NCBI GenBank assembly: GCA_036524475.1
Contig: DATDCF010000246.1
Span: 1-36,596 of the forward strand
DNA from: Acidimicrobiia bacterium
GTDB lineage: Bacteria > Actinomycetota > Acidimicrobiia > Spongiisociales > ZC4RG35
Direction: 5' to 3'
DNA: 36,596 nucleotides
A program made the position numbers and the translations under genes. The notes under the pieces are model-generated. The model saw only the letters and a list, made by a program, of their open reading frames with translations. It was not told the DNA's origin and searched no databases. This document shows positions 2,365-31,536 of this stretch, one piece after another (positions within the stretch are counted from its first letter, which is position 1; each line of letters begins with the position of its first letter).

Positions 2365-2406
2365 AATGTGAGCCGGACTCTAAATCGACCAAGGTGAAAC
2401 AGGCTT

Positions 2407-4163: not shown

Positions 4164-4178
4164 CCGGTTTCTGCACCC

Positions 4179-5825: not shown

Positions 5826-6405
5826 AATCGTTGCGCGCTGCTCTCACCATGGGTGAGACGAAACAGTTCGGAACATGGTCGTTGACAAGACCCATCGCCT
5901 GCATGAACGCATAAGCAGTGGTCGGGCCAACAAACCTGAACCCTCGCCTCTTCAAATCTCGGGACATTGCCAGCGACTCCGGAGAGGTCGAGCGAGTCGG
6001 ATCTGACCTCCTTGGCTCATAGGTCCAAACGTAAGCTGCAAAGGATCCGAATTCGGCAATCACCGCCCCCAAGTTGTTCGCATTGTTGATGGTCGCCTCG
6101 ATCTTGCCGCGATGCCGAACAATGGTCGGGTCTGCAAGCAGCCTCTCGACATCCTCGCTACTCATCGAAGCAACCCGGGTGAAGTCGAAGTCATAGAAGA
6201 CCCTCCGAAAGTCATCACGCTTGCGAAGAATGGTCAACCACGACAGTCCACTTTGAAAACCCTCGAGACAGATCTTCTCGAACAGCAAGAAGTCATCGCT
6301 CACGGGAAAGCCCCATTCGGTGTCGTGATAAACCAGATAGTCCGGGGTCGAGACACCCCAACTGCAACGTGGCTTACCGTCGTCACCCGTCACAAGATCT
6401 GGCAT
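5809..6405 (-). CDS. tag: DNA-3-methyladenine glycosylase I
   Basis: 198-aa ORF with the Tag signature: CSWGVSTPDYLVYHDTEWGFPV...LFEKICLEGFQSGLSWLTILRKRDDFRRVFYDFD. Confidence 0.9.
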   Translation of the reverse strand: MPDLVTGDDGKPRCSWGVSTPDYLVYHDTEWGFPVSDDFLLFEKICLEGFQSGLSWLTILRKRDDFRRVFYDFDFTRVASMSSEDVERLLADPTIVRHRGKIEATINNANNLGAVIAEFGSFAAYVWTYEPRRSDPTRSTSPESLAMSRDLKRRGFRFVGPTTAYAFMQAMGLVNDHVPNCFVSPMVRAARNDFAVPV

Positions 6406-6470
6406 CTCCGGAGATTACCGCTCCCATCCGCAACTCAGCACGGCACGACGCGCCACTCTAAAGTCCGGTC

Positions 6471-7610: not shown

Positions 7611-7612
7611 GG

Positions 7613-8422
7613 TTGGGCAGCAGCAAACCAGGAGATCCATTGTCACACAAAGTCAAAATTGGAGTTCAACTCCAACCCCAACACGCCGACTTCGCCGATA
7701 TCCGCCGTGCGGTAATCAGGGCCGAGGAGATCGGCGTGGACGCCATCTTCAACTGGGATCACTTCTACCCGTTGTCGGGCGATCCTGACGGGAAACACTT
7801 CGAGTGCTGGACGATGCTCGGGTCGTGGGCGGAGATAACAGAGCGAGCCCAGATCGGTGCTCTGGTGGTCTGCAATTCCTACCGGAATCCCGAGCTACTC
7901 GCCGACATGGCGCGCACAGTAGACCACGCTTCCGAGGGCCGTCTCATCCTCGGGATTGGTGCAGGATGGTTCGAGAAGGACTACGACGAGTACGGCTACG
8001 AATTCGGGACCGCCGGGTACCGACTCGCCGACCTGAAACGGGCCCTCCCCAGGATCAAGGACCGACTGAGAAAGTTGAATCCGGCGCCCATTCGGGAGAT
8101 CCCGATCATGATCGGTGGTGGTGGCGAGAAGAAGACTCTCCGCTACACAGCCGAGTTTGCCGATATGTGGCACGGTTTTGGCGATGCCGAGAGGATTCGC
8201 CACAAGAACGGGGTCCTCGATGAATGGTGCAGGAAGCTGGAGCGAGACCCTGCCGAGATCGAGCGATCGTGTGGGGCCAACCCGAAACGAGTCGAGTCAG
8301 CCGACGACCTCTACCGTGCGGGCGCAACTCTTTTCACCCTCGGATTCGACGGCACCACCAACTACGACATGGCCATGGTCGCGGATTGGATCGCCTGGCG
8401 CGACGAAAAAAACGCGAGTTAA
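7613..8422 (+). CDS. LLM-class (luciferase-like) F420-dependent oxidoreductase
   Basis: 269-aa ORF. It shows the typical LLM pattern: IGVQL...AEEIGVDAIFNWDHF, CWTMLGSWA, NSYRNPELLADMARTVDHASEGRLILGIGAGW. TTG 7640 is preceded by GGAG at 7631-7634 and is an alternative, better-supported start. Confidence 0.82.
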   Translation: MGSSKPGDPLSHKVKIGVQLQPQHADFADIRRAVIRAEEIGVDAIFNWDHFYPLSGDPDGKHFECWTMLGSWAEITERAQIGALVVCNSYRNPELLADMARTVDHASEGRLILGIGAGWFEKDYDEYGYEFGTAGYRLADLKRALPRIKDRLRKLNPAPIREIPIMIGGGGEKKTLRYTAEFADMWHGFGDAERIRHKNGVLDEWCRKLERDPAEIERSCGANPKRVESADDLYRAGATLFTLGFDGTTNYDMAMVADWIAWRDEKNAS

Positions 8423-8472
8423 TTGTGCGGGGGACGACCCCCCTGCACCCCCGCTGGTTGATCCCCCGCGCA
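8419..8472 (+). repeat. GC-rich palindromic (REP/terminator-like) element, copy B
   Basis: TTAATTGTGCGGGGGACGACCCCCCTGCACCCCCGCTG matches the reverse complement of 151-186 (32/36 identical, 2-nt gap). It begins on the TAA stop of the LLM gene. A third C-arm (TTGATCCCCCGCGCA) follows at 8458-8472. Confidence 0.7.
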
Positions 8473-8616
8473 GGCACGTTTTACTGTCCCCCCGAAGGAG
8501 CGGAGCGACGCATGGGGAAGGCTCCGCCGATTGCTCAGCGGTAGGGAGGATTCCGACTCGCGTCAGATCAGCACGCGGGTCTCGGGATCCCCCTTACTTC
8601 CGGACCTGGCTGACTC

Positions 8617-9480
8617 CTAACTGGCCAGGATGCGGTCGGCTTCGGGAGTGACCAGGTCCTGGCTACGACCCATCCACCACACCAGACCCAACCCAAGCAC
8701 CCCGGCGATGAAACCGATCACCTGGTTCCAGGTGAAAGAGCCCACGACAGCGTCTCCGTTGTCGATCCGGAGGGCGTCGAGTAGGAACCGTTGGAAGCCG
8801 TACCAGGAGACCCAGATGAAGAACATCTGCCCGTAATGAACCGGGAGTCGCGTGTAGATCAAATAGAGAACGCCCAGGAGGACGATTGCCCCCAACATGT
8901 CATACGCGGCGACGTGGTGGTAGATGCCGCAGAAACCGTCGGGCCCGGCTTCGGCGGCGACACATTCGAGATTGTCATGCTGGGGTGCCACGTCGTAACC
9001 TGGCTTGATCCCATAACCCCACGCCACTGTGGTTGCGGTGCCGAGATGCTCCACAATCGCCAGGTCGCCAATACGACCGACGATTGTCCCCACGGCCAGG
9101 CCGAAAGTTGCGACGTCGAGGGTGGGCCACACCGCCAGACCGACCATCCGCATCCGGATCGCCCCGGCGATGATTCCACCAGCAAATCCCCCCATGATCG
9201 AAAAGTTGCCGGAGATCGGGTTCAAGGCTTCGGCGAGAGTCGCTCCGTCCATGAGTTGTGCCGGAGCGGTGAAGTATCGGGCACCGAGAAGGGCACCGAT
9301 CAGGCCCCACGTGAGGGCTGATTGATACTTTTCTGTGTCAAAGCCTCTCCGGCCGAGCATCCTGGTGGTGAGCCACGCCCCGGCGATGAACCCGAGGGCA
9401 GCGAACACGCCATGCAGGGAGAGTCGCAACGGGCCCACCTCAAAAATGGGAATCGGCGGGTAGGTGATGACTGCGAGCAC
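8617..9480 (-). CDS. lgt: prolipoprotein diacylglyceryl transferase
   Basis: 287-aa polytopic membrane ORF with GTG start. Lgt pattern: FEVGPLRLSLHGVF..., GARYF, GGFAGGIIAG, and GRIGDLAIVEHLG (GR-x-G-x-x-x-x-E-x-x-G). Confidence 0.88.
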   Translation of the reverse strand: MLAVITYPPIPIFEVGPLRLSLHGVFAALGFIAGAWLTTRMLGRRGFDTEKYQSALTWGLIGALLGARYFTAPAQLMDGATLAEALNPISGNFSIMGGFAGGIIAGAIRMRMVGLAVWPTLDVATFGLAVGTIVGRIGDLAIVEHLGTATTVAWGYGIKPGYDVAPQHDNLECVAAEAGPDGFCGIYHHVAAYDMLGAIVLLGVLYLIYTRLPVHYGQMFFIWVSWYGFQRFLLDALRIDNGDAVVGSFTWNQVIGFIAGVLGLGLVWWMGRSQDLVTPEADRILAS

Positions 9481-9532
9481 GGGAAGACCCTAACGACAAT
9501 CAGCAGGTTCAACATAGCTAAAGTCGACTCCC

Positions 9533-10693
9533 GTGAGTGATCTATTGACCGCAGTAGCCGAGGCCCTGGGGACCCCGGCCGACCTGATCAGTCGTTCTGC
9601 CGCCGCCCGCGCCGCAGCCAATGGAACTTCCACCGAAGATGTTCTCTCCGCATGGTCGGGCGGTGCCCCAATGACCGCCCCTCAAGCCCCTCCTCCCCAG
9701 GCGGATCCGCCGCCCGAGGCCGCAGCACCGGAAATCACCACCGAACTGCCCGCGCCGCAGCCCATCCCACTCGAGGTCGCGCAACCCGCGGCGACAGTTG
9801 TAGCGGTTGTCGAAGAATCGAAGCCGCTTGAACCCGTCGACCTATCTCATCGACTGAGAACAGCGGGCAGGGTAGGGGTTTGGACCGGAGCAGTCCTCGG
9901 GCTCTTCGCCTTTGTCGCGGCAACCTCCTGGTGGTCGCAGAACGCCACTGTGGCCGGCGAAGAGGTGTTGCGGCCGGTACTGGTGGCAGACAGTCAGTCC
10001 GTGATGATCGGCATAGCCCTGGCCAGTCTGGTCTTCGGGGCCATGGTCGCGTCGCTCGCCAGGGCTGCCGCCGGTTGGACAGACCCGGGGATGGCGTTGT
10101 CATCCTCGAAGTCTTCGACCGCTTGGATCGGGGCAGCCATCGGCCTGGCCCTTGGGTTCGGGGCAGGCGCGTTGCTCGCCAATGGCTTCGGCGTCCCCGT
10201 CGAAGGTTCGGAGGGATTGGTGCAGTTGCCCGTTCTGGTAACGCTTGCCGTCATGCTGGTCGGCGGGGCCTTCCTGGGCTGGGCCACGACTATTGCGACC
10301 CAGGTTTTTGGAATACCGGTCGCCGTCGACACTGCTGACACAGACGAGGTTGGCGTCGTCAGGGCGCGGCTCGCCAACGCAATCGGTATACCGTTAGCCT
10401 CGGTGGTTTTGCTGCTCGCCCTGGTCCTTCCCTTTGCTTGGACGTTGATTCGCTCCAACCATCTAAGTTCCGGCGGAGCAGCCATCATCGCAATCGTCGC
10501 CTCATCCGGGGTACTCGTTTTCGCCTCGCTGGCCGGTTCCAGACCCAACATGAAAATCAGCAGAGGTGAGTTCCTGGTGGCACTGGCCGGGATCGGGATC
10601 GTCTTGATCCTGGTGTTCGCCGTCCTCAACAACGTCGGTGGTGAACACACCGAGGAAGACACTGAGGCTGTCGTCCACCAGCTAGTCGTTTAG
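9533..10693 (+). CDS. hypothetical polytopic membrane protein with Pro/Ala-rich N-terminal region
   Basis: 386-aa ORF with GTG start. A soluble N-terminus (...PQAPPPQADPPPEAAAPE...) is followed by about 7 clear hydrophobic helices. No family recognised. Confidence 0.72.
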   Translation: MSDLLTAVAEALGTPADLISRSAAARAAANGTSTEDVLSAWSGGAPMTAPQAPPPQADPPPEAAAPEITTELPAPQPIPLEVAQPAATVVAVVEESKPLEPVDLSHRLRTAGRVGVWTGAVLGLFAFVAATSWWSQNATVAGEEVLRPVLVADSQSVMIGIALASLVFGAMVASLARAAAGWTDPGMALSSSKSSTAWIGAAIGLALGFGAGALLANGFGVPVEGSEGLVQLPVLVTLAVMLVGGAFLGWATTIATQVFGIPVAVDTADTDEVGVVRARLANAIGIPLASVVLLLALVLPFAWTLIRSNHLSSGGAAIIAIVASSGVLVFASLAGSRPNMKISRGEFLVALAGIGIVLILVFAVLNNVGGEHTEEDTEAVVHQLVV

Positions 10694-11649
10694 AGATCGG
10701 CCCGGTTGAGGGCCATCGACAAATCCCCATCGACCAGCACTCTGGAGACGTATTCCGCCACCTCGACCGCAACATGGTTTTGCGCCTCGTGGGTGGATGC
10801 ACCGAGATGCGGTGTCAAAGTGAGGTTCGGCGCACTCAGCAGAGAACTGGATGGTGACAGCGGTTCTTCGTCGTAGACATCCAGCCCGGCCCCGGCGAGA
10901 TGCCCGGAGGCAAGTGCCCCGGCGAGATCAGACTCGTTGACCACACCTCCACGGGAGGCGTTGACCAAAAATGTCCCTGGTTTCATACGCGAAATTGCAT
11001 CCGCATCGATCATCCCTCTTGTCTCTTCGGTGAGCGGTACGTGACACGAAATGATGTCAGCTGTCTCGATCACCTCGTCGAGATCGGTGAGACGGGATCC
11101 AATCTCCGACGCTCGCTTCGGAGCCAGATATGGGTCGTAGATGACCACCTCCATGCCAAAGGCCTGGCAACGTATTGCGACTTCGGCCCCGATTCGACCT
11201 GCCCCTATCAATCCGAGACGACGTCCGCGAAGTTCGGATCCTTTGAAGAAAGCCCGATCCCAGCGGCCGGCCCGGATCGATGCATCAGCCGCAGCGACCT
11301 GTCTCACCGTTGCGAGGATCAGAGCCATTGTCATCTCGGCGGCGGCGATGGTGTTACCTGCCGGAGCGTTGACTACGGCCACACCGCGCTCGGTTGCTGC
11401 CGCAATATCGATGTTGTCGACGCCCACACCGGCCCGTCCCACCACCCGGAGATTTGGCCCTACGTCGAGCATCACGGCATCGACCGTCGTTGCGCTCCGC
11501 ACGATGAGGGCGTTGGCGTTATTCAGAGCTTGTGAGAAAGCTTCGGAGTTGGAGTCATGTTGGTAGACAACGGAAAATCGGTCATCCTGATTCAATATCG
11601 CGAGACCGGATTCCGCCACCTTGTCGGTGACCAGGACCAAGAACGTCAC
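10690..11649 (-). CDS. D-isomer-specific 2-hydroxyacid dehydrogenase (phosphoglycerate dehydrogenase or hydroxypyruvate reductase type)
   Basis: 319-aa ORF with GTG start overlapping the upstream stop (GTGA). Motifs: NAD-binding GLIGAGRIGAEVA, ISCHVPLTEETRGMID, LVNASRGGVVNESDL, GAGLDVYDEEP, TPHLGAST. Confidence 0.9.
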   Translation of the reverse strand: MTFLVLVTDKVAESGLAILNQDDRFSVVYQHDSNSEAFSQALNNANALIVRSATTVDAVMLDVGPNLRVVGRAGVGVDNIDIAAATERGVAVVNAPAGNTIAAAEMTMALILATVRQVAAADASIRAGRWDRAFFKGSELRGRRLGLIGAGRIGAEVAIRCQAFGMEVVIYDPYLAPKRASEIGSRLTDLDEVIETADIISCHVPLTEETRGMIDADAISRMKPGTFLVNASRGGVVNESDLAGALASGHLAGAGLDVYDEEPLSPSSSLLSAPNLTLTPHLGASTHEAQNHVAVEVAEYVSRVLVDGDLSMALNRADL

Positions 11650-12743
11650 CGAAGCGCACCGCCGACCACTTCAAGCAGTCCGTCGAGCTCATCGACGGTG
11701 TGATCGCCCATGTGGCCGATGCGAATCGTCGACTCAGAAAGCTTCCCGTAGCCACCCCCGATCACCCACCCGGCACCCTGCACCCGATCAACGAGGGCGG
11801 GCGCCGCCACTCCTTCAGGCATCGACACGCATGTGACTGTCGGGGAACGATGGCCTTCCCCGGCGAAAACTCCGACCCCGATTCCGTCGCTCTTCATGCT
11901 TTCGATCCACTCAAAAGTCCGCGCCTGCATGTCGAGGTGGCGTTGCCACCGGGCCTTCATGCCTTCGGAAGACATCCGATGAAGTTGCACCTGGAGGGAA
12001 TAGAGCAGTGACACGGCCGGAGTCGCCGGGGATTGGTGCTGTCGCGCCTGGTCGACCAGATCGACCAGATCGAAATACCAACCCTTGTTAGGTGCGGCCT
12101 TGGAACGGTTGAGCAGGGCATCGGAGGCGACGCCGAATGCCAGGCCGGGAGGAAGTGCAACTGCCTTCTGGGAGCCGGTGAGGATGAAGTCGATGCCCCA
12201 TTCGTCGGTATGGGTCTCCACGCCGCCAATCCCGGTGACCGAATCAACGAGCAACAGTGTTTGAGGGAACCTGGCCACCACGGCGGCAATCGATTCGAGA
12301 TCTTGCAGTGCTCCAGTAGACGTCTCCGATTGCGAGAGGGTGACGGCGTCGTAGGCCCCGGCAGAGAGACGGGACTCTAATTCGTCGGGGGAATGAACCG
12401 ACCCCCAGGCGACCTCCCACCGGTCGACGTTGTGGCCGCATGCGGCAGCGATTTTGGCGAACCTGCCCGAGAAGGCCCCATTGACGAGGCTCAAAACATC
12501 TCCGGTGATGACCCCGTTTCGGATAGCCCCCTCCATCAGGCCGCTTGCCGACGAGGTGGATACCACGACAGTGCGCTCGGTCTGGAACAGTTCGCTCAGA
12601 CCGGGCTCGATGTCCTGCATCAAATCGACGATCGCCGGGCCACGATGCCCGATCATGGGTTTGGTCTGGGCGGCGAGGACGTCGGGGTGGACTTCCGTGG
12701 GGCCGGGCAAGAAGAAGCGCCCGAACGGCTGTGAGGTCGTCAT
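11646..12743 (-). CDS. class-V pyridoxal-phosphate aminotransferase (AGXT / serine-pyruvate or phosphoserine aminotransferase type)
   Basis: 365-aa ORF. Motifs: FLPGPTEVHPDVL, IGHRGPAIVDLM, and the PLP-lysine context TGSQKAVALPPGLAF. Confidence 0.9.
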   Translation of the reverse strand: MTTSQPFGRFFLPGPTEVHPDVLAAQTKPMIGHRGPAIVDLMQDIEPGLSELFQTERTVVVSTSSASGLMEGAIRNGVITGDVLSLVNGAFSGRFAKIAAACGHNVDRWEVAWGSVHSPDELESRLSAGAYDAVTLSQSETSTGALQDLESIAAVVARFPQTLLLVDSVTGIGGVETHTDEWGIDFILTGSQKAVALPPGLAFGVASDALLNRSKAAPNKGWYFDLVDLVDQARQHQSPATPAVSLLYSLQVQLHRMSSEGMKARWQRHLDMQARTFEWIESMKSDGIGVGVFAGEGHRSPTVTCVSMPEGVAAPALVDRVQGAGWVIGGGYGKLSESTIRIGHMGDHTVDELDGLLEVVGGALR

Positions 12744-18947: not shown

Positions 18948-19091
18948 CTATTCGTCGTCCTTGCCGACCTCAGCAGATGCTCTTGCACGCGCTCGCTTCT
19001 CAGCCCACCGGATTGCCCACAGCGCCAGCAGAGCAGGCACGACAAACACCCCGACCTCATCGATACCGCCGTAGTGGGCAAGCGTTCTCAT
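18948..19091 (-). CDS. unannotated 47-aa single-TM mini-protein (below the ORF-track size cut-off)
   Basis: The ATG at 19091-19089 overlaps the TGA of the upstream membrane-protein gene (ATGA). Translation: MRTLAHYGGIDEVGVFVVPALLALWAIRWAEKRARARASAEVGKDDE. That is one hydrophobic helix followed by a positively charged stretch. TAG at 18950-18948 lies 25 nt upstream of the ctaB GTG. Confidence 0.45.
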   Translation of the reverse strand: MRTLAHYGGIDEVGVFVVPALLALWAIRWAEKRARARASAEVGKDDE

Positions 19092-20446
19092 CCGGCGAGA
19101 ATCACTAAACCAAGCGACGTCAGTGCCACCATGAGGACAAGCATTGCATATTGGGACCTGACCGCGTCCGGCCCGAAGTCGACCAGAGCGCGATCGTGGG
19201 CCAGGACGACCCCGAGCACGTGGCCGACCACGATCACGGCCAACTGGAAGTACCAGATCGGTTCGGTCGCCGTGATGAAGAAGTCGACCGAGCGATCAGC
19301 AGTCCCGAAGAGGTCCCAACCAAGAGCGAACGGATCCGAGATTGCGGAGAACAGCTGTTGGCCTTCGAAAATGATCAGGGTGAAGTAGTGAGCGACGGCA
19401 TATGCGAGGGCGATGGGAATCAGGGTATGGGCAAATCGTCGTGCCACCCTGCTCGCATCTGTCCCTTGCGATAATCGCGCCGCCAGCCAGGATGCCGACC
19501 AGTAGGCGGCAGACACTACCCCGATGCACCCGAGTAGCAGGACGGTCTGGCCCGGAGGGCTTTGAATCAGGCTTTGCGTTGCCGTCCGGAACCAGACCGT
19601 TCCACTTGCCCCGTCATAAGTGACGGTGCCAATTGCCGCCAGAACGAAGAAGGTGAGTCCGGGCCACGGGGGCAGGACAGGCAGGGCGCGGAGCCATCCG
19701 CGCCACACCAGATACCCATCGCCATCTCGCCCGAGAGGTGAAATGGCCGAAATGATGCGGTTGTAGCCCGTGAACAAGTCGGCAACAACCAAACCGGTCT
19801 CCCGGCCGAGCAGCGCCATCGAACCGAACAAGTAGCCCGAATAGATGATTGCCGCCCATCCCAGTGCAGCCGGATTCCCCGAATCGGGGCTGATCAACTC
19901 CAACCATGCAAATGCGACGAGAGCCACGCTTGCCGGCCAAATCCCGAATCGGTCGAGCAGGTCATTCTTCTCGGTTTCACCGATCCGGAGCGCCGATCCG
20001 ATGGAACCCCAGGGATTGATCGCCCGGTACCAGTTTCCAATAAATGCGGCGAGGAACGGAATGACGAGCCACAGCACCACCCATACCAGGACCGGGGCAA
20101 TCGTGGGCCGTCCACGAACCTGTTCTATTCCCAGCAGACTCGGGACGACCTGGCCCACCACCAACAGCAAGCCCACGACTCCGGCAGCCCCCAGCGAGAC
20201 ACCGAGCCAGCGAGGTATGACAACCAACCGCCGTTCGCTTATCGGACGATTGAGCCTGGGTTCGGGCCAGAGAAGCGCAAGGGCCACGAAAGACAGGACG
20301 AGGGCGCTTGCAGCCGCTACCACGAAGTAGGACAGGGGCACAGGAAGGTCGAGACGCCCCCCGATCCCGTGGGCGAGAGCAATTCCCGGTGACAGAAATA
20401 CCAGGCCCCCCGCAACCACTATTGCTGCCGGGAGGCGTCGTATCAA
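19088..20446 (-). CDS. hypothetical polytopic membrane protein with cleavable signal peptide
   Basis: 452-aa ORF with TTG start in a TTGA overlap with the upstream lipoprotein stop. The N-terminus MIRRLPAAIVVAGGLVFLSPGIALA|HGIGG looks like a Sec signal with an A-x-A site. About 10 further TM helices follow. There are His-containing C-terminal helices (FAHTLIPIALAYAVAHYF, GHVLGVVLAHDRA). No family recognised. Confidence 0.8.
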   Translation of the reverse strand: MIRRLPAAIVVAGGLVFLSPGIALAHGIGGRLDLPVPLSYFVVAAASALVLSFVALALLWPEPRLNRPISERRLVVIPRWLGVSLGAAGVVGLLLVVGQVVPSLLGIEQVRGRPTIAPVLVWVVLWLVIPFLAAFIGNWYRAINPWGSIGSALRIGETEKNDLLDRFGIWPASVALVAFAWLELISPDSGNPAALGWAAIIYSGYLFGSMALLGRETGLVVADLFTGYNRIISAISPLGRDGDGYLVWRGWLRALPVLPPWPGLTFFVLAAIGTVTYDGASGTVWFRTATQSLIQSPPGQTVLLLGCIGVVSAAYWSASWLAARLSQGTDASRVARRFAHTLIPIALAYAVAHYFTLIIFEGQQLFSAISDPFALGWDLFGTADRSVDFFITATEPIWYFQLAVIVVGHVLGVVLAHDRALVDFGPDAVRSQYAMLVLMVALTSLGLVILAG

Positions 20447-20895
20447 GGGGTTACCTCAACCTCAAATACGAGAGTGTGTGTGTCTTCGAGTTCCGCCTCG
20501 AAAACGCCCGGAATCCCGGCCGAAAACTCCACATCGGTGGTTTCGCCCGCGACCAGGTCTATGAAAATGTCGTAACCGTGAATGTGGAGTTCGCCAGGGA
20601 CCGACGATTGGACTCGAATCGACACCTCGTCGCCAAGGGCGAAGGAAAAGAGATCGGGCCCTTCGATCGAAATGGCCGGGTCGTCGGCTGTTCCGCCGGA
20701 AATAACGATGTCGGGTTCCTGAGCGGTGGAAGTTGTGGTATCCGGGGCCTTAGTCGACGTGGTTGGCTGTTTGGTTGTCGTCGACGTGACGGTACTGGCA
20801 GCCGTTGTCGCCACCGTGACAGTGGGCTCCGACACTTCACTTCCACAGGAGACGAGAACCAGGGCAAGCAAAGTCAGAATGACAGAGATTTTCAC
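20443..20895 (-). CDS. hypothetical lipoprotein: Thr-rich linker plus small beta-rich domain with HxH motif
   Basis: I take the start at GTG 20895 (VKISVILTLLALVLVSCGSE, lipobox LVSC), giving 150 aa. The track ORF's upstream 109 residues look non-coding and overlap the divergent acylase promoter region. The mature protein has a Thr/Ser/Pro linker, then ...VSIRVQSSVPGELHIHGYDIFIDLVAGETTDVEFSAGIPGVFEAELEDTHTLVFEVEVTP. Confidence 0.7.
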   Translation of the reverse strand: MKISVILTLLALVLVSCGSEVSEPTVTVATTAASTVTSTTTKQPTTSTKAPDTTTSTAQEPDIVISGGTADDPAISIEGPDLFSFALGDEVSIRVQSSVPGELHIHGYDIFIDLVAGETTDVEFSAGIPGVFEAELEDTHTLVFEVEVTP

Positions 20896-20940
20896 GGCGC
20901 AACGATATCCGCCCCGCCGACGAAAACGGAAAGTGCGGGT

Positions 20941-23469
20941 ATGGCTGGGTATTCTCCGCGAATGCGGTGGCTGAAACGTCTTTTGATTCTTCTGCTCGTT
21001 TTGGTCGTCGGTCTCGGAGTATTTGGCTTCCTCACAGTTCGTGCTTCTTTCCCCCAGCTCAATGGGGAAGTCGAAGTCACCGGGCTGGGTACAGAAGTGC
21101 AGGTGATCAGAGATGAATATGGGATTCCGCACATCTATGCCAGTACTGTCTCCGACCTGTTCAGGGCCCAGGGCTATGTCGAAGCCCAGGATCGCTTCTT
21201 CCAAATGGACTTCTGGCGTCACATCGGGTCGGCGCGCCTGTCGGAGATGTTTGGTGATTCCCAGGTTGAAACTGACAAGTTCCTTCGCGCCTTCGACTTC
21301 GCCGGCACCGCCGAAGTCGAACTCGAGATGATGTCAGAGCAGGCTCGCAACATCCTGGAGTGGTACTCCGCCGGGATCAACGCCTATCTCGTGGACCACC
21401 AGGGGGCGAGCCTCAGCCTCGAGTACGCAATCCTGCCCCTATCAGCTCCCGGATACGAGCCCGAGCCGTGGAGCCCGGTCGATACGCTCACCTGGGCGAA
21501 GGTGATGTCATGGGACCTGAGCGGCAATTTCTCAGACGAGGTATCCCGGAGCGTCCTGGCCGAAACGCTCACGGTCGAGCAAGTCGAGCAGCTCTTTCCG
21601 CCCTATCCCGACAATCACCCGGTCATCGTTCCCGACGAACTCCGAGCCGGTTTGTGGTCGCCGCCGGTCGTCGAAGTTCCGGAGGCCGCGATGATCGCCC
21701 TGCATTCGGCCGACACAGGGCGCCGGGCCGTGAATTCGCTAACCGGCGGTGGCTTCGAAGGGATCGGATCCAACAACTGGGTGATTTCCGGAGCTCATAC
21801 CGCGAGCGGAATGCCGATTCTTGCCAACGACCCCCACCTGCCAAATCAAATGCCATCCATCTGGTACGAGATCGGGCTTCACTGCACCCCGATCGGCCCC
21901 GATTGCCCCTTTGACGTTGTCGGCTTTACCTTTGCGGGAACTCCCGGAGTCGTGATCGGGCACAACTCCACGATCGCCTGGGGCGTCACCACCGAGGCCG
22001 CCGACACACAGGACCTTTTCATCGAGAAGCTCAACCCGCAAGACCCCGGCCAGTACGAGGTCGACGGTGCGTGGGTTGACATGCAGGTGCGATCGGAGAC
22101 GATCGAAATCGCAGGAGGAGACCCGGAGACCTACGACATCTATACCACCCGACACGGGCCGATAATCTCCGGTTTGCACGGCGGCGCAGATGAAATTACC
22201 GACCCGACCACCGAATATTCGGAGGGGTACGGTGTCGCCCTGGCCTGGACATCGCTCAGGCCCTCGACCCTGGTGGAGTCGATCATCGCGATCAATCTCG
22301 CCTCGAATTGGGAGGAATTCCGCACCGCTGCGTCTATGTGGGACGTCGCCGCCCAGAACCTGGTCTATGCCGATAGCAGCGGGAACATCGGATATCAGTC
22401 GACAGGGGAGATACCGGTGCGTCCCAACTCGGACGGACTCCGGCCGGTGCCGGGATGGGAAACTGCCAATGATTGGGTAGGCACGGTGCCTTTTGACCAG
22501 ATGCCGTTCATCTTCAATCCCGAACGGGGCTACATAGCCACAGCCAACCAGCCGGTCCTGGCTGCGGGCAGTTTGCCCTTCATCGGGCGTGACGGCGCCT
22601 ACGGCTACCGGGCGGCACGCATCGAGGAGTTGATCAATGAATCCCAGGGCCACGATGTCGCATCGGTGCAACGAATGCAGATGGACAACCGCGATGGGGG
22701 AGCCGCCAATATCGTCCCATCATTGATCACGGTACCAACCGATCAGCCCGAGGTCCTGGAGATCCAGGACATGCTCGAAGCATGGTCTCCCGGTAAGAGT
22801 GGTTTCCAGGCGGGAACAGACTCCCCGGGGGCGGCGGCGTATCAGGCGACATGGCGGTACCTGCTCGATCTGACATTCAGTGACGACCTACCCGAGGATG
22901 AGCGCCCCGTCGGTGGAAGTCGGTGGTTCCAGGTCGTCTCGAACCTGGTGAACACACCGGAGGACCCGTTATGGGACAACCAGAACACCCCCCAAGTCGA
23001 GTCGGCCAACGAAATCATGGAGGCGGCGATGGCATCAGCCCACTTCGAGATGACCGGACTGCTTGGTTCCGATAGTGAGAAATGGCGTTGGGGCGACCTA
23101 CACCTTGCCTCGTTTGAGAATCAGACTCTGGGCCAATCGGGGATCGCCCCGGTGGAATGGCTACTCAACCGGTCGGCCCCGAATCGAGTGGCGGGTAGCG
23201 ATTCGGTCATCAATTCTGTGGGATGGAATGCAACGATCGGGTATGAAGTCGACTGGGTCCCCTCGATGCGGATGGTGATCGACCTTGGCGACCTGGCCGG
23301 TTCGACATCGATCCATACCACCGGTCAGTCAGGCCACGCCTTCCACGGAAACTACGCGGACATGATCGACATGTGGACCGATGGTGAGCAACACCCCATG
23401 TTGTGGGATAGCACCCAGGTCGACGAAGCGGCAGTCAACATCTTGATCCTCAAGCCACTATCTGGCTAG
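20941..23469 (+). CDS. penicillin acylase family (Ntn-hydrolase S45) protein, membrane-anchored or secreted
   Basis: I take the start at ATG 20941 (MAGYSPRMRWLKRLLILLLVLVVGLGVFGF...), giving 842 aa. Motifs: IPHIYA, DRFFQMDFWRH, the beta-subunit N-terminal nucleophile context GSNNWVISG, and ANDPHL. The track ORF from 20308 is an artefactual upstream extension. Confidence 0.9.
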   Translation: MAGYSPRMRWLKRLLILLLVLVVGLGVFGFLTVRASFPQLNGEVEVTGLGTEVQVIRDEYGIPHIYASTVSDLFRAQGYVEAQDRFFQMDFWRHIGSARLSEMFGDSQVETDKFLRAFDFAGTAEVELEMMSEQARNILEWYSAGINAYLVDHQGASLSLEYAILPLSAPGYEPEPWSPVDTLTWAKVMSWDLSGNFSDEVSRSVLAETLTVEQVEQLFPPYPDNHPVIVPDELRAGLWSPPVVEVPEAAMIALHSADTGRRAVNSLTGGGFEGIGSNNWVISGAHTASGMPILANDPHLPNQMPSIWYEIGLHCTPIGPDCPFDVVGFTFAGTPGVVIGHNSTIAWGVTTEAADTQDLFIEKLNPQDPGQYEVDGAWVDMQVRSETIEIAGGDPETYDIYTTRHGPIISGLHGGADEITDPTTEYSEGYGVALAWTSLRPSTLVESIIAINLASNWEEFRTAASMWDVAAQNLVYADSSGNIGYQSTGEIPVRPNSDGLRPVPGWETANDWVGTVPFDQMPFIFNPERGYIATANQPVLAAGSLPFIGRDGAYGYRAARIEELINESQGHDVASVQRMQMDNRDGGAANIVPSLITVPTDQPEVLEIQDMLEAWSPGKSGFQAGTDSPGAAAYQATWRYLLDLTFSDDLPEDERPVGGSRWFQVVSNLVNTPEDPLWDNQNTPQVESANEIMEAAMASAHFEMTGLLGSDSEKWRWGDLHLASFENQTLGQSGIAPVEWLLNRSAPNRVAGSDSVINSVGWNATIGYEVDWVPSMRMVIDLGDLAGSTSIHTTGQSGHAFHGNYADMIDMWTDGEQHPMLWDSTQVDEAAVNILILKPLSG

Positions 23470-24360
23470 AAAATCGCCGATCTCCCCCGCCAATCGGACC
23501 GGATGGGTCCAGGGGACCTCGTGTCGGGCACCGGCGACCTCGACGACGGTGACATTTCGCAACGAAGATGCGAGCTCGTATTGCCACGAGACCGGCACCA
23601 GCTGATCCTCAGTGGGAATCACAACCAATGTGTCGGTGTCCAAACGACCGAGCCACTCACGGGAGTCGAAACGGAGCATGGCCAACGATGCCTGGGCGCC
23701 GGCATCCACGTCGCGACGATGAGTTTCCTCCCAGAACCAGCGGGCATGCTCGGCGGCGACGGCCCCGGTCGCGAGCAGATAGCCCGCCCGCACGTCCGGA
23801 GTTCCGAAGCCAAATATGCGTTCGAACCCGCGCACCAGGACACTTCCGACCGCACGCAGAGTACGGAGGGGTTGCGGGTGATACGTGAAGGTGGCGACCA
23901 GCACCATCTTCTTGACCCGGCCGGGATAGTGATGGGCCAGTTCCTGGGCAACGGCGCCGCCCAGTGAATACCCGACCACGTCGCACGTATCCACGCCGAG
24001 CTGGTCGAGCACACCGGCGATGTCGTCGGCTTCGTCGCTGATTTCGTATGGCCCCCGGGACAGCACTGAGAGTCCATGTCCACGGTGGTCGAGCAAGATC
24101 ACACGTCGATGTGCCGCCAGAAGAGGGGCAACCTCGTACCACTCCGCCAGCGAGGAACCGCCTAGACCGTGAATAACCAGCAACGGATCACCGGTCTCGG
24201 GGCCGGCCTCCCTGACCAGGAATTCGCTGTCACCGACGAATACGGTCCTACCCGCCTGTCTCCAGGGATGAACCTGCGGTTGCTTGAACTTCGGGGTCAA
24301 CACAGGGAGGAGGGCCCGGACCGCCAGGGCCGCCACGAGCAACTTCGTCAGGAAACTCAC
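23458..24360 (-). CDS. alpha/beta-fold hydrolase
   Basis: 300-aa ORF with GTG start in a GTGA overlap with the upstream stop. It has the oxyanion motif LLVIHGLGGSS, the nucleophile elbow VVGYSLGGAVA, and a C-terminal ...GARHEVPWTHP (catalytic His context). Confidence 0.85.
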   Translation of the reverse strand: MSFLTKLLVAALAVRALLPVLTPKFKQPQVHPWRQAGRTVFVGDSEFLVREAGPETGDPLLVIHGLGGSSLAEWYEVAPLLAAHRRVILLDHRGHGLSVLSRGPYEISDEADDIAGVLDQLGVDTCDVVGYSLGGAVAQELAHHYPGRVKKMVLVATFTYHPQPLRTLRAVGSVLVRGFERIFGFGTPDVRAGYLLATGAVAAEHARWFWEETHRRDVDAGAQASLAMLRFDSREWLGRLDTDTLVVIPTEDQLVPVSWQYELASSLRNVTVVEVAGARHEVPWTHPVRLAGEIGDFLAR

Positions 24361-24791
24361 GACTCGAGACTCCCGGTTGCAAATACATACTCCTCGACCG
24401 GATTCCCATCGACCAGATGCTCCTGGATGATCCGGTCCAGCTTCTCGATGGTCAGATGCGCGTACCAGGTGCCCTCGGGATAGACCACGGCGATCGGCCC
24501 CTGTTCACAGATCCGCAAGCAATCGACTTTGTTTCGCAACACCGACCCGTCGCCCGCAGGGACAGGTGTGGCCTCGACACCTGGCTTGCCATACCAGATG
24601 GGCGGAGCAGAGGTGAGGTCGAGTTCCTTCAGGCGCCTCTTGAGATGGGACCAGAGTTCGCTCGCTTCTTCCCGTGGGGCACATTTCGGAGTGGTCTGAT
24701 CAGCACACAGGAATATGTGCCTCTGAACGCGCGGTATCGACAGAGCGTTGGCAATCGATTCAAGCCGTTGTCGTGGATCCATTGGAGTCAT
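24357..24791 (-). CDS. thioredoxin-like [2Fe-2S] ferredoxin-domain protein
   Basis: 144-aa ORF. It has four Cys in the TRX-like ferredoxin arrangement (HIFLCADQTTPKC ... VDCLRIC), followed by EQGPIAVVYPEGTWY. Confidence 0.75.
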   Translation of the reverse strand: MTPMDPRQRLESIANALSIPRVQRHIFLCADQTTPKCAPREEASELWSHLKRRLKELDLTSAPPIWYGKPGVEATPVPAGDGSVLRNKVDCLRICEQGPIAVVYPEGTWYAHLTIEKLDRIIQEHLVDGNPVEEYVFATGSLES

Positions 24792-24833: not shown

Positions 24834-25853
24834 TTACGAAATTACCTCGATGCCGCCGCCTTTATTGAACCCACCGATCGTCACGGCGCCGGGAACCGCC
24901 ACCCGATAGTCCTCGACGTCCGATGGGTCGAGGGCGACGAGGAGTCCTCCCGAGGTCTGGGCGTCTACGAGGATACGGATGTCGACATCCCTCGAGTCCA
25001 CGAAGTCGCCGAACGACTCGAGGTTCCGCTTTGAACCACCCGCCCAGGCGCCTCGCTCGAGCAGTTCGCCAACCCCTTCGAGAACCGGGACCTCGCCGAA
25101 GTGGACGGTCGCTCCAACCCCTGATGCCTCACATATCTCACGGAGATGCCCGAGGAGGCCGAAACCGGTGACGTCAGTTGCGGCATGGGCGTTGCCGGGA
25201 ATCAGAGCAGCGCCGGAAACGGAGTTCAGGGCCGCCATCTGTTCGATTGCCGTCGCCGCCAGGTCGGGTGGACAGAAGCCCCTTTTGATCGCGGTGGTGA
25301 CGATCCCGATGCCCAGTGGCTTGGTCAGCACCATGAGGTCGCCGGGGCGGGCTCCGGAGATGGCGACCGCCTTACCCGCGTCAACCAGTCCGGTGACCGC
25401 ATAGCCGAACATCGGCTCAGGAGCATCGACGGAGTGGCCCCCGACCACCGTACAACCTGCCTGTGCCATCACATCGAGACCACCACGGAGCACATCGCCG
25501 GCGACCTGAAACGGCAATTCGTCACGGGGCCAGGCGAGAAACGTAAGTGCTGTCAACGGAATTCCACCCATGGCGTAGACGTCGCTGAGGGCGTTGGCGG
25601 CGGCGATTCGACCGAAGTCATAGGGTTCGTCGACTACGGGCGTGAAGATGTCGACCGTCTGCACCAGGGCGCGACCATCCCCCAGCGCATAGACGCCGGA
25701 ATCGTCGGCGACCGACAACCCGATCAGCAGATCAGGATGTTCGGTTGCGGGATGGCCATGGACTGGACGCAAGACCTGCGCCAACTCGGCAGCGCCGAGT
25801 TTGCAGGCTCAGCCAGCGCCGTGGCTGTACCGGGTTAGACGGGTAGCGGACAT
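24834..25853 (-). CDS. selD: selenide, water dikinase (selenophosphate synthetase), Sec-containing form with in-frame UGA at 25811-25809
   Basis: The track ORF (24834..25784) carries SelD motifs (VADDSGVY, DIFTPVVDEPYDFGRIAAANALSDVYAMGG). Reading the same frame upstream through TGA gives ATG(25853) MSATRLTRYSHGAG-U-ACKLGAAELAQVL. This reproduces the conserved SelD N-terminus (E. coli RLTQYSHGAGCGCK), with TGA at the catalytic Cys17/Sec position. The full length of 339 aa is typical of the family. Confidence 0.9.
25775..25807 (-). promoter_or_regulatory. candidate bacterial SECIS stem-loop immediately 3' of the selD UGA
   Basis: mRNA: UGA G CCUGC A AACUCGGC GCU GCCGAGUU GGC GCAGG. There is an 8-bp upper stem (AACUCGGC/GCCGAGUU) and a 5-bp lower stem (CCUGC/GCAGG), separated by a 1x3 internal loop. 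The structure starts 1 nt after the UGA. Confidence 0.55.
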
Positions 25854-25903
25854 GGCGTGAAACTTAACTAAGAACGATCGGTTGGTTACCCTTTCCACTT
25901 CCC

Positions 25904-26380
25904 ATGACCGAAGAAACCACCTTCCTCACCCCTGCCGCATTCAAAAAAATGCGGAAGGAATTAGAGCTGCTCAAGACAGACGGTCGTCACGAGATCGAGG
26001 ACCGGATCGCCGAAGCACGCTCACACGGCGACCTCCGCGAAAACGCCGATTACGACGCAGCCAAAAACGAGCAGGGACTCATGGAGGCGCGGATCCGAAA
26101 GCTCGAGCACTTGCTCCGAACCGCTGAGGTGCGCGAAGTCGAAGACTCAGGCCTCGTCGAAATCGGGTCGGTGGTGACTGTCGTCGACGATGACGGTGAA
26201 GAGATGGAGTTCTTTGTCGCACCTCAAGAAAACAAACTACCGGGGGTTCTTCTCGCCTCACCGGATAGCCCACTCGGGGGCGCGATGATCGGGGCGGCAA
26301 TAGGCGACACCGTCGAATACGACGCCCCGGCAGGAAAACTCACCGTCATGATCAAGTCAGTGCGACCATACGAGGCGTAA
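25904..26380 (+). CDS. greA: transcription elongation factor GreA
   Basis: 158-aa ORF with the canonical GreA N-terminal coiled coil: LTPAAFKKMRKELELLKTDGRHEIEDRIAEARSHGDLRENADYDAAKNEQ. Confidence 0.95.
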   Translation: MTEETTFLTPAAFKKMRKELELLKTDGRHEIEDRIAEARSHGDLRENADYDAAKNEQGLMEARIRKLEHLLRTAEVREVEDSGLVEIGSVVTVVDDDGEEMEFFVAPQENKLPGVLLASPDSPLGGAMIGAAIGDTVEYDAPAGKLTVMIKSVRPYEA

Positions 26381-28420: not shown

Positions 28421-29866
28421 ATGGTGGGAAAGATCGGCGGAGCCCTGTTGGCAGCTGCCCTCATGGGTGGCTTGTTTGTCGTGTCGCCCCAACCGCCGGC
28501 AGCGGCCCAGGCAGCGGCGGAGGCGGCGTCGACGAGTGGATGCGGCCCGGTAACCCTCGATCAGCTCTTCCCGGGAATCGACCGCGATGGCAACCCGATC
28601 TCCACGCCCACGACCACAACCACGCCGACCCCCGCTTCCACCACGACCACGATTCCTTCTTCGACGTCGACCAACCCGGGACAAACCACGACCACCTCTC
28701 CCCAGACCACGACCACCTCTCCCCAGACCACGACCACCTCACCGCAGACCACGACCACCTCACCCCAGACCACGACCACTCCGCCAGAAACGACAACCAC
28801 AACCGGAGAGTCACCCGCACCCTGCCGGACATGGGTTTACGAAATGGTATTTCCCATCGCCACCGACGCCCGGGTGATCTCAGACTTCGGCGATGACCGT
28901 GACGGTGGATCCCGGAGGCACAAGGGAACCGACCTCGTCGCCGACAGGATGGCCCCCGTGGTCGCTGTCTCCGACGGTGTCGTCTCATCGGTGCACAACA
29001 CGCCGGCGGAGGATTGCTGCTATTTGACCATCCGACACGATGATGGTTGGTCCAGCCTGTACGTGCACCTGAACAACGACGACTACCCGGGCGACAATGG
29101 GCTGGGCATTGGCGTGGCGCCCGGCCTCGACGTCGGGACGAGAGTTCTGGCGGGCCAGGTGATCGGCTGGGTTGGCGACTCCGGAAATGCCGAAGGCTCA
29201 ATTCCACACCTTCACTTTGAGCTGAGGACTCCCCAGGGGTATTCGGTAGACCCCGTCCCCAGTATTCGGGCTGCCAAATCAGGTGCGGAGCTCTCGACGC
29301 AGAGAGGTGTCTACAGGGATGACGACGGGATGGGTGTGGAAGTGACTGCCACCCGCCTCGCCGCAGTCGGCGGATACTGGCCTTGCGCCGACGACCAACT
29401 CTCTCTGTGCCCCAACCGGCTTGCCCAACCTGAGGAAACCGCAGAGCTGATAGGCAGGCTAATGGGCTTGTCTCCTGTGGTTGCCGACACCGTCCAACAG
29501 ACCCTCGGCTTCCAAAGACATATCCCCCCGGGGACACTTGAACAGGTAACCGGTTGTCAGATAGTCCGCGACTGCATGCAGGACGGGATCACCACTGCGG
29601 ACGTTGCAAGGATGATCAGCTGGGTCTATGAGGCCGAACGGATGCTTGCCAACAATCCCGAGACCGACCTGATCGCCGAGCTCGCACTGCCGTCGGCGTC
29701 GGCCGCGGAGTCGAGCCTCAGATTCCGGGGCGTCATAGAGATTTGCCATCCCTCACTGGACGCCGATCGTCTGGTGACCCGCGCCGACGTCATCAATCTG
29801 GTTACCTGGTGGATCCAGCGGGAGAACCCCGTGGCCTGCAATCAGAGCGTGGGTCCCGAGAGCTAG
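28421..29866 (+). CDS. M23 (LytM-type) metallopeptidase with Thr/Pro-rich repeat linker and C-terminal domain
   Basis: 481-aa ORF. It has an N-terminal signal-like segment, a (QTTTTSP)x5 linker, and M23 motifs HKGTDL (HxxxD) and IPHLHFEL (HxH). Confidence 0.9.
   Translation: MVGKIGGALLAAALMGGLFVVSPQPPAAAQAAAEAASTSGCGPVTLDQLFPGIDRDGNPISTPTTTTTPTPASTTTTIPSSTSTNPGQTTTTSPQTTTTSPQTTTTSPQTTTTSPQTTTTPPETTTTTGESPAPCRTWVYEMVFPIATDARVISDFGDDRDGGSRRHKGTDLVADRMAPVVAVSDGVVSSVHNTPAEDCCYLTIRHDDGWSSLYVHLNNDDYPGDNGLGIGVAPGLDVGTRVLAGQVIGWVGDSGNAEGSIPHLHFELRTPQGYSVDPVPSIRAAKSGAELSTQRGVYRDDDGMGVEVTATRLAAVGGYWPCADDQLSLCPNRLAQPEETAELIGRLMGLSPVVADTVQQTLGFQRHIPPGTLEQVTGCQIVRDCMQDGITTADVARMISWVYEAERMLANNPETDLIAELALPSASAAESSLRFRGVIEICHPSLDADRLVTRADVINLVTWWIQRENPVACNQSVGPES
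28682..28786 (+). repeat. 21-nt in-frame tandem repeat, 5 copies (CAGACCACGACCACCTCNCCC)
   Basis: Direct reading: units at 28682, 28703, 28724, 28745 and 28766 differ by 1-4 nt. A degenerate sixth unit extends to 28807. The array encodes QTTTTSP repeats in the M23 peptidase. Confidence 0.9.
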
Positions 29867-31536
29867 GGGCGGTAGAGGTTGGTTATTGGCAGCCGCCGAT
29901 CTTTGCCAAACGCCTTCGTCGTTATCTTGACACCGGGTGCCGACTGGCGCCTCTTGTACTCGTTTCGATCGACCATGGCGGCTACACGCAAGACGGTCTC
30001 TGAGTCGAACCCCTCAGCGATGATCTCATGCACTCCCAGATCCATCTCTATGTAATGGTGGAGGATCGAGTCGAGGATCTCGTACGGCGGTAGCGTGTCC
30101 GAATCCTTCTGATCCGGCCTCAGCTCGGCCGACGGTGGTTTCGAGATGGTGTTGGCAGGAATCACCTCACCGTTCCGGTTGCGCCATTCCGCTAGTTGAT
30201 AAACCACCGTCTTGAACACATCCTTCAACGCCGAGTAGCCGCCCACCATGTCGCCATAGAGAGTGGCGTAACCCGCTGCCATCTCCGACTTATTACCCGT
30301 AGCCAGGACCATGGGGCCGAATTTGTTCGAGACCGCCATCAGCACTGCCCCTCGTGCTCTCGCCTGGAGATTCTCTTCCGCGGTCCCGGCCCCGGTGTCG
30401 GCGAAAAGGGCACCCAGGGTCTCCAGGTACTCTGCAAATATCGCATCGATTGACACCGTGTCGAATCTGATCCCCAAATTCCCGGCGAGTTCGCCGGCGT
30501 CGTCTCTGGAATGCCGGCTGGAGTACCTCGACGGCATCGACAGGCCCCACACATTGTCGGGTCCGAGTGCGTCGGCAGCGATCGTTGCTGTCAGGGCCGA
30601 ATCGATACCCCCGGAGAGCCCGAGCACGACGTTGCTGAACCCGTTCTTGATGACATAGTCTCTGACTCCGGTGGTGAGCGCCCGATAGATCTCTTCCGTC
30701 GGTGCGAGGAGGGGGGTCAGCTCGGAAGCCTCCGGTCCGGGCTCATCCGGGAGGGGGCAGTCGACCACGAAGAAGTCTTCCTCGAACTGGGGCGAGCGGT
30801 GGATTATCTCCCCGCCCGCGCCAACCACCAGCGATGCTCCGTCGAAAACCAGCTCATCCTGGCCGCCAACGAGATTGAGATAAACCAAAGGCACCCCCGC
30901 GGCCAGGGCCCGCGACCGCAGCATGTCTTCTCTGTCGGCGGCTTTCCCGGCATGAAATGGAGAAGCGTTGATGTTGAGCAGGATCCGGGCTCCGTTGCGG
31001 GCTTGCAGACTCGGAGGCCCATCGGCGACCCATATGTCCTCACAGATCGATATCCCGGCTGGTACTCCGCCGATCTCCCAAATCCGGTCGGCATCCTGGC
31101 CCACAGAGAAATAGCGATCCTCGTCGAAAACTCCGTAATTGGGCAGGAGCACCTTGTGGTAGACACCCTTGATCCTGCCGTCTCCGAGCAATGCAGCGGC
31201 ATTGGCCACGCGACGCTCGACCGAATCGGCCGCTCCCGCCGAAGGCCCAGGTCCATGATCGACGAATCCGACCACGACCTCAGTTGTTGTCGTTTCGCGG
31301 GCAATGCGGCGAAGAGACTCGATACCGGCATTGACGAAGTCGGATCTGAGTACCAAATCCTCCGGCGGGTATCCGTTGATCGCCAATTCGGGTAGGAGCA
31401 GAACATCCGCACCTGCGTCCGACGCCCTGGAGTGGCTCTCGAGGATCCTGGCCTCGTTGCCCGGGATATCCCCGACGACGAGATTGAGTTGGGCACCGGC
31501 AATGCGCATGGACATAGCCGCACGATATCCAAACAC
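29863..31536 (-). CDS. nadE: glutamine-dependent NAD+ synthetase
   Basis: 557-aa ORF. The N-terminal CN-hydrolase domain has LPELAINGY and ICEDIW (catalytic Cys). The C-terminal synthetase domain has LGLSGGIDSAL (SGGxDS). The start is more likely ATG 31515 or 31509 (MSMRIAGAQLN). Confidence 0.93.
   Translation of the reverse strand: MFGYRAAMSMRIAGAQLNLVVGDIPGNEARILESHSRASDAGADVLLLPELAINGYPPEDLVLRSDFVNAGIESLRRIARETTTTEVVVGFVDHGPGPSAGAADSVERRVANAAALLGDGRIKGVYHKVLLPNYGVFDEDRYFSVGQDADRIWEIGGVPAGISICEDIWVADGPPSLQARNGARILLNINASPFHAGKAADREDMLRSRALAAGVPLVYLNLVGGQDELVFDGASLVVGAGGEIIHRSPQFEEDFFVVDCPLPDEPGPEASELTPLLAPTEEIYRALTTGVRDYVIKNGFSNVVLGLSGGIDSALTATIAADALGPDNVWGLSMPSRYSSRHSRDDAGELAGNLGIRFDTVSIDAIFAEYLETLGALFADTGAGTAEENLQARARGAVLMAVSNKFGPMVLATGNKSEMAAGYATLYGDMVGGYSALKDVFKTVVYQLAEWRNRNGEVIPANTISKPPSAELRPDQKDSDTLPPYEILDSILHHYIEMDLGVHEIIAEGFDSETVLRVAAMVDRNEYKRRQSAPGVKITTKAFGKDRRLPITNLYRP

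Follow-up and report, generated by a model that had tools for sequence, protein, structure and literature searches.

Can a selD gene remain functional when its catalytic codon is an in-frame UGA, and if so, how is this codon read? The question is raised by a gene on the minus strand of a 36,596-nucleotide stretch of Acidimicrobiia DNA (contig DATDCF010000246.1, assembly GCA_036524475.1), which encodes selenide, water dikinase (selenophosphate synthetase, SelD) and has a UGA at codon 15; the whole stretch is referred to below as the window. It is very likely that selD is functional and that the UGA is read as selenocysteine (Sec). We strongly infer that the organism decodes UGA as Sec, because the UGA is conserved, the gene shows purifying selection and the codon is followed by a covarying hairpin, a putative selenocysteine insertion sequence (SECIS).

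The selD frame is open from ATG 25853–25851 past TGA 25811–25809 to TAA 24836–24834, and the conceptual product reads MSATRLTRYSHGAG-U-ACKLGAAELAQVL.... A mechanically called open reading frame (ORF) begins only at an internal TTG (25784) and comprises 316 amino acids (aa). An earlier, sequence-only reading of this DNA had placed the start at ATG 25853, noted the TGA and the internal TTG, and proposed a product of 339 aa with the UGA at the catalytic Sec/Cys position of SelD; all the coordinates were correct on re-translation. The alignment to a SelD family profile that it had suggested was performed with Cys standing in for residue 15. The product matched the SelD equivalog model TIGR00476 almost over its full length, scoring 370.9 bits where the cutoff is 125 (residues 5–312 on profile positions 1–310 of 311). 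The match spans residues before the TGA, and the 14 upstream codons therefore belong to the family model. NF002098 was matched with 354.7 bits (cutoff 299), and the Pfam domains AIRS (PF00586) and AIRS_C (PF02769) with 84.5 and 54.3 bits, respectively. The best match among solved structures was E. coli SelD (PDB 3U0O, E=5e-85, residues 3–315), where residue 15 (U) aligned to Cys17 and Lys18 to Lys20, thus bearing out the proposed position of the UGA. Mutagenesis has shown that both Cys17 and Lys20 are essential in E. coli SelD. The glycine-rich N-terminal loop with the catalytic Sec/Cys and Lys is present in the product as SHGAG-U-ACK; E. coli SelD has the same loop, but there the site is Cys (UGC) and needs no recoding, whereas the window has UGA. 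Judged by these matches, the selD product is a selenophosphate synthetase.

How widely the UGA is shared depended on how relatives were searched for. A first genome scan returned 80 relatives, but its seed, the peptide HGAGCACK, is biased towards Cys forms. It found TGA only in L002 (relatives are cited by contig handle) and TGC or TGT in the other 78 relatives with a readable site. A SelD search of a large protein collection then revealed many relatives at 67–84% identity whose called proteins were truncated at the N-terminus, being 293–319 aa long and starting with (M)AQVLRPV..., MRPVHGHP... or MQVL.... In the retrieved DNA, the corresponding codon is TGA in L171 (84% aa identity), L173 (79%), L174 (74%), L175 and L176 (71%), L172 (68%), L092–L094 (66–67%), L095 and L096 (55%) as well as in L002 (96%), and also in the distant L099, L118, L125 and L126. 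At least 11 diverged relatives, at 55–96% aa identity, share the TGA at selD codon 15, most of them together with the gene order of the window; one of these, L172, is a 2.6-Mb contig (ctg321930, ERZ25072999) fully syntenic with the window. The hypothesis of a very recent switch from Cys to Sec was rejected, as the protein search and DNA retrieval had revealed many Sec-type relatives.

The order mgtE, greA, divergent selD, a ferredoxin-like gene and an alpha/beta-hydrolase gene is common to about 25 relatives, so that the comparison is one between orthologs. Cys-type orthologs carry TGC or TGT at the Sec position. All TGA-bearing relatives keep the N-terminus RLTxYSHGAG-U-ACK and, with the exception of L096, have a start codon 14 codons before the site; an ATG or GTG is found there in L002, L171–L176 and L091–L095, while in L096 the corresponding codon is GGC and the start may lie further upstream. 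The conservation of N-terminal residues that had been claimed was seen in all of the approximately 100 relatives read. The possibility, raised at the same time, that the real start lies downstream and the upstream codons are not conserved was excluded by the retention of the start and of RLTxYSHGAG in Sec- and Cys-type orthologs alike.

The stretch directly after the UGA contains two hairpins, H1 and H2 (Table 1). It was found that H2 is paired at 97% in 14 distinct Sec-type sequences versus 44% in 98 Cys-type orthologs, and H1 at 86% versus 62%. Taken together on alignment A2, H1 and H2 gave 91% paired cells and a covariation of 0.327, compared with 0.184 in shuffles; none of 500 shuffles reached either of the observed values, and register-shift controls for pairing gave 29–44%. 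Four of the seven H2 pairs have changed on both sides, pair 33–43 being GC in nine sequences, CG in four and UA in one. RNAalifold independently predicted H2 as a consensus helix. Its triloop, G37-U38-N39, coincides with the Val27 codon, and three Sec-type sequences from other phyla retain H2 with different sequences.

In H1, L092–L094 show a compensatory G-C to A-U change, and in a synonymous-recoding test of H1 the window and L002 gave z-values of −2.4 and −2.8, while Cys orthologs averaged −0.6, with a few as extreme. The H1 fold of the window ranks 7th of 81 sequences. H1 was rejected as the SECIS, since Cys orthologs fold alike, the K-L-G...E-L coding sequence is self-complementary, and it is H2 that discriminates between the two types. 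We also considered a longer form of H1 that adds a lower stem (nt 5–9 with 33–37), competes with H2 and is the minimum free energy fold of the window; the RNA after the UGA folds as H1 plus this lower stem at −24.4 kcal/mol. The lower stem is paired at 84% in Sec-type sequences, but H2 is preferred because the stem is broken in L092–L094, where H2 is compensated. We propose that H2 is the SECIS, with its loop as the predicted apex for SelB binding; H1 appears to be partly a by-product of the K-L-G...E-L coding and may contribute to the SECIS as an accessory element. The TTG start of the mechanical ORF falls in the 3′ arm of H1.

In the model bacterial SECIS, that of E. coli fdhF, a stem-loop with G-U in its apical loop likewise comes soon after the UGA, and its apex, UGCAGGUCUGCA, is similar to the H2 core GCAGGUCUUGC. 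In fdhF, however, the G-U loop lies about 20 nt after the UGA, whereas here the triloop lies at 33 nt and is preceded by the second hairpin H1. A bulged U is not evident in H2, unlike in the fdhF SECIS, and SelB binding to H2 is predicted. A genuine SECIS from the same class is found in fdhA of L085, where the UGA (...QARL-U-HGPTV) is followed by an 8-bp stem with a GUU triloop.

In a neighbour-joining tree, the window, L002, L171, L173, L175 and L174 form a Sec-type subclade with one nested Cys form, L091; outside this subclade Sec and Cys forms are interspersed. Of the relatives not belonging to the window's own species, L091 (JGI Ga0307505_10020668, position 881) is the closest, with 86% aa identity. 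It has TGT at the Sec site and both hairpins are intact. Because it is nested in the Sec-type subclade and retains both hairpins, L091 looks like a recent reversion from Sec to Cys with a fossil SECIS. Judged by the tree and the catalytic codons, the soil Acidimicrobiia subclade that includes the window normally has the Sec form.

We suggest the following course of events. A ribosome starting at ATG 25853 would arrive at UGA 25811–25809, where the mRNA just downstream would fold into the SECIS, formed above all by H2 and possibly together with H1. SelB carrying Sec-tRNA(Sec) would bind this element and, competing with release factor 2, would insert Sec. This would give a selenophosphate synthetase of 339 residues whose catalytic loop, SHGAG-U-ACK, contains Sec.

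Several observations weigh against the decoding of the UGA as Sec. Neither tRNA genes nor selA and selB were found in the 36.6-kb window by tRNA and profile searches, and the syntenic flanks examined in relatives (±10 kb) likewise lacked selA, selB and tRNA-Sec. The window shows no sign of a further selenoprotein gene; none of its other TGA-interrupted frames was convincing, the only long read-through corresponding to two adjacent genes in the same frame. H1 alone does not separate Sec-type from Cys-type genes, as several Cys-type orthologs fold equally well. At 33 nt from the UGA, the H2 loop falls near the upper limit of the 16–37 nt covered by predictions of bacterial SECIS elements. The Sec-type sequences are related by descent and the pairing signal is partly inherited, although three of them come from other phyla and retain H2 with different sequences. 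Finally, the Rfam SECIS models gave no match at the gathering threshold, nor at E≤10 on positions 25650–25900. Because these models reportedly represent bacterial SECIS elements poorly (bioRxiv 10.64898/2026.04.03.716425), the missing match is no evidence against function.

Other members of the class Acidimicrobiia have the Sec trait. Two contigs, L023 and L026, carry selD, tRNA-Sec, selB and selA together, and L082–L085 carry selA-selB plus tRNA-Sec, in L085 also with a UGA-containing fdhA. The matches in a search of the protein collection with an Acidimicrobiia SelA all came from other metagenome-assembled genomes (MAGs; JBOGEX, JBOGEW, JABAOD, JBIOYG and DHIO). In L125, which belongs to another phylum and has a Sec-type selD, tRNA-Sec lies directly downstream of selD. 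Within the Acidimicrobiia clade of the window, none of selA, selB and selC is ever adjacent to selD; these three genes are presumably present in this genome.

Two of the contigs examined for Sec machinery deserve a description of their own. L085 (JBOGEW010000163.1), from an Acidimicrobiia MAG, contains a full selenium island at 1597–11798 with selA, selB and fdhA. The fdhA gene has an in-frame TGA at 5323 and had been split in gene calling into two (195 and 816 aa). The island also includes other formate dehydrogenase genes, fdhE, tRNA-Sec (10287–10380) and a DsrE-like gene; its selD was called at a full length of 347 aa and is presumably of the Cys type. In the metagenome contig L101 two tRNA-Sec genes are arranged in tandem about 100 nt apart (11606–11702 and 11799–11895), near selA- and selB-like genes.

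The best-surviving alternative is that the UGA is read through without Sec, by near-cognate Trp or Cys insertion or by Cys-tRNA(Sec), or that it acts as a regulatory stop. The full-length enzyme would then contain another residue or would be made only occasionally. It is known that Cys can be inserted at Sec codons under selenium limitation, which counts for this explanation, as does the fact that no Sec machinery was observed in this genome when the window was searched. On the other hand, the site is the catalytic Sec/Cys position of a family with known Sec members (PMC1794560), and a covarying hairpin with a G-U loop, the signature of SelB-dependent recoding, is conserved only in TGA-bearing orthologs. 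Trp at the position of the catalytic nucleophile would be inactive, and elsewhere in the window TGA is an efficient ordinary stop. We consider read-through without Sec improbable. Reassignment of UGA in the genetic code was rejected as well, TGA being the commonest ordinary stop codon in the window (15 of 31 genes).

A selD inactivated by a nonsense mutation from TGC or TGT to TGA, with any product starting internally and lacking the catalytic loop, is less probable still. Such a pseudogene would agree with the absence of a protein accession for selD in the public annotation, with the failure to see Sec machinery in the window, and with the first genome scan, where Cys codons occupied the site in 78 of 80 relatives and TGA was confined to L002 (96% identical). 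The picture from that scan was, however, an artefact of the Cys-biased seed. The TGA is kept in 11 or more lineages, at identities as low as 55% and with the frame intact on both sides, and the covarying hairpin is specific to TGA-bearing genes. Selection on the gene was estimated by comparison with L002, the MAG JTS-RE187, which is the GTDB species representative of the lineage. The two selD genes are 97% identical in nucleotides (96% in amino acids) and differ by 19 synonymous and 11 nonsynonymous changes, while about 55 nonsynonymous differences were estimated under neutrality. The resulting ratio of nonsynonymous to synonymous rates (dN/dS) is 0.20, similar to that of the neighbouring genes (0.15 pooled over 15 genes, range 0.02–0.38), and no difference occurs in the 42 nt upstream of the TGA. 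These values indicate that purifying selection acts on selD, and the conservation of the TGA across diverged orthologs effectively refutes the pseudogene.

A sequencing or assembly error hiding a true TGC or TGT, a possibility allowed for in the sequence-only reading, has a negligible chance: only one base separates these codons from TGA and the window derives from a MAG, but the Logan contig L001 (SRR25158255), an independent assembly, is 100% identical to the window over 2.3 kb including the TGA, and the same TGA recurs in many separate assemblies (NCBI, ENA, JGI and Logan), among them L002, L171–L176 and L092–L096.

The features of the locus are listed in Table 1. Scanning for a promoter and a terminator around selD found nothing. 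The ferredoxin-like gene downstream of selD is probably co-transcribed with it; its protein had no Pfam match. Wherever the contigs of TGA-bearing relatives reach that far, greA is directly upstream of selD. A ferredoxin-like gene (141–167 aa) and then the hydrolase gene follow selD in L002–L022, L027–L029, L032, L042, L045, L172 and L175.

Table 1. Position of selD, its candidate recoding elements and its neighbours in the window.
Feature	Coordinates	Strand	Remarks
alpha/beta-hydrolase gene	23458..24360	−	Pfam Abhydrolase_1, 115 bits; overlaps the stop codon of the ferredoxin-like gene
thioredoxin-like [2Fe-2S] ferredoxin-like gene	24357..24791	−	144 aa; sub-cutoff NCBIfam 2Fe-2S ferredoxin match, 50 bits
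full-length selD coding sequence (selenide, water dikinase / selenophosphate synthetase)	24834..25853	−	339 codons; predicted Sec (U) at codon 15
hairpin H2	25766..25782	−	nt 30–46; 7-bp stem, G-U-C triloop 25775–25773 (Val27 codon)
hairpin H1	25783..25801	−	nt 11–29 after the U of the UGA; 8-bp stem, GCU triloop
selD in-frame UGA (putative Sec codon)	25809..25811	−	residue 15, equivalent to E. coli SelD Cys17; translation and alignment
selD start codon ATG	25851..25853	−	14 codons upstream of the UGA
greA, divergent	25904..26380	+	50 bp from the selD start; HEY5891295.1

The arrangement of selD, ferredoxin-like gene and hydrolase gene is kept for Sec- and Cys-type SelD alike, and a functional link of the two neighbours to selenium handling is therefore possible. 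That the three genes form a dedicated selenium-handling module is nevertheless doubtful. If they did, the module might, for instance, supply SelD with selenide, carry out a selenide reduction for it, or serve a selenium pathway distinct from Sec-tRNA synthesis, with Sec-type SelD tuning the module. An undescribed use of selenophosphate would then be possible, as the selenouridine trait is reportedly absent from Actinobacteria (Peng et al., 2016, as cited in bioRxiv 10.64898/2026.04.03.716425).

Some further observations were made on the surroundings of selD. Six MFD MAG contigs (L008, L009 and L011–L014) labelled ‘uncultured Acidobacteriota bacterium’ have the greA/mgtE/selD/ferredoxin-like/hydrolase order and 62–66% SelD identity; either the label is wrong or the block was transferred. 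In the 21 kb shared with L002, all genes but two are 95–97% identical (dS approximately 0.08–0.19); nadE (29863–31536) shows only 82% nucleotide identity (dS 0.72, 12 gap positions) and the adjoining M23 peptidase gene (28421–29866) 90%. This segment appears to have undergone recombination or replacement. With 0.38, the penicillin-amidase ORF (20308–23469, plus strand, 1053 aa) has the highest dN/dS of the region; it overlaps a convergent 452-aa ORF (19088–20446, minus strand) by 139 nt. Its Pfam match begins only at residue 263 and the orthologs in L171 and L172 have 832–835 aa; the true start is probably about 220 codons downstream. About 20 kb from selD lie a rhodanese-domain protein gene (2407–3210, plus strand), with two matched stretches and not of the SelU/YbbB type, and a gene for a molybdopterin-binding oxidoreductase with a sulfite-oxidase type domain (4179–5825, minus strand). 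Both point to sulfur metabolism, and a selenium link is not evident.

Known Sec-type SelD proteins, such as those of Rubrobacter xylanophilus, Symbiobacterium thermophilum, many Deltaproteobacteria and Clostridia, share the UGA in the loop SHGAG-U/C-xCK. Another example is Haemophilus influenzae. As in the case described here, the known bacterial genes have a stem-loop directly downstream of the UGA and Cys-type orthologs in sister lineages. They differ in that the window comes from uncultured soil Acidimicrobiia, and its selD is placed between greA and the ferredoxin-like and hydrolase genes, apart from selA, selB and selC. SelD and FdhA are the most widespread bacterial selenoproteins, and one or both of them occur in every Sec-using organism (Zhang, 2006, PMC1794560). 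The same study reported Sec-type SelD in Actinobacteria such as R. xylanophilus, attributed 20% of detected Sec-to-Cys conversions to SelD, and noted that some Cys forms keep remnant SECIS-like structures, which matches what we see in L091.

The closest parallel is Actinomarina (Actinomarinales, an order of Acidimicrobiia), where selD is of the Sec type in about half of the genomes and of the Cys type in the rest, and where it is missed by standard gene prediction and by Rfam SECIS models (preprint ‘Actinomarina, resolved’, bioRxiv 10.64898/2026.04.03.716425). The class is the same, and so is the mosaic of Sec and Cys forms found in the wider family of the window. Actinomarina, however, is marine, has genomes of 1.1 Mb in which selA, selB and selC were shown in complete genomes, and its SelD starts with MSATRLT, whereas the window's clade is a different one, with larger genomes, 60% GC and an MRLT-type N-terminus. 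The Sec form, its mosaic distribution and the fossil SECIS of L091 all fit the published picture. Sec-type SelD, switching between Sec and Cys, and fossil SECIS elements have been described already, and the window is a further lineage in which they occur.

It had also been predicted that standard gene callers would mis-annotate the gene. This proved right: the calls in the protein collection are truncated, as described above, and in the public third-party annotation record (locus-tag prefix VIW94) the genes flanking selD have the consecutive protein accessions HEY5891294.1 and HEY5891295.1. As selD lies between them, it apparently has no protein record there, being either flagged as a pseudogene or not called. 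Since NCBI, JGI, ENA and Logan calls drop the catalytic loop of Sec-type SelD, selenium use would be under-called in pathway reconstructions of soil Acidimicrobiia. H2, with its 7-bp stem and G-U-N triloop at the Val27 codon, separates Sec-type from Cys-type selD and could seed a covariance model. The present case extends a well-described pattern to another lineage and leaves the current understanding unchanged, so that its value is a practical one for annotation. For the organism itself, a Sec-type SelD would imply a whole Sec pathway, and other selenoproteins in its genome are probably mis-annotated.

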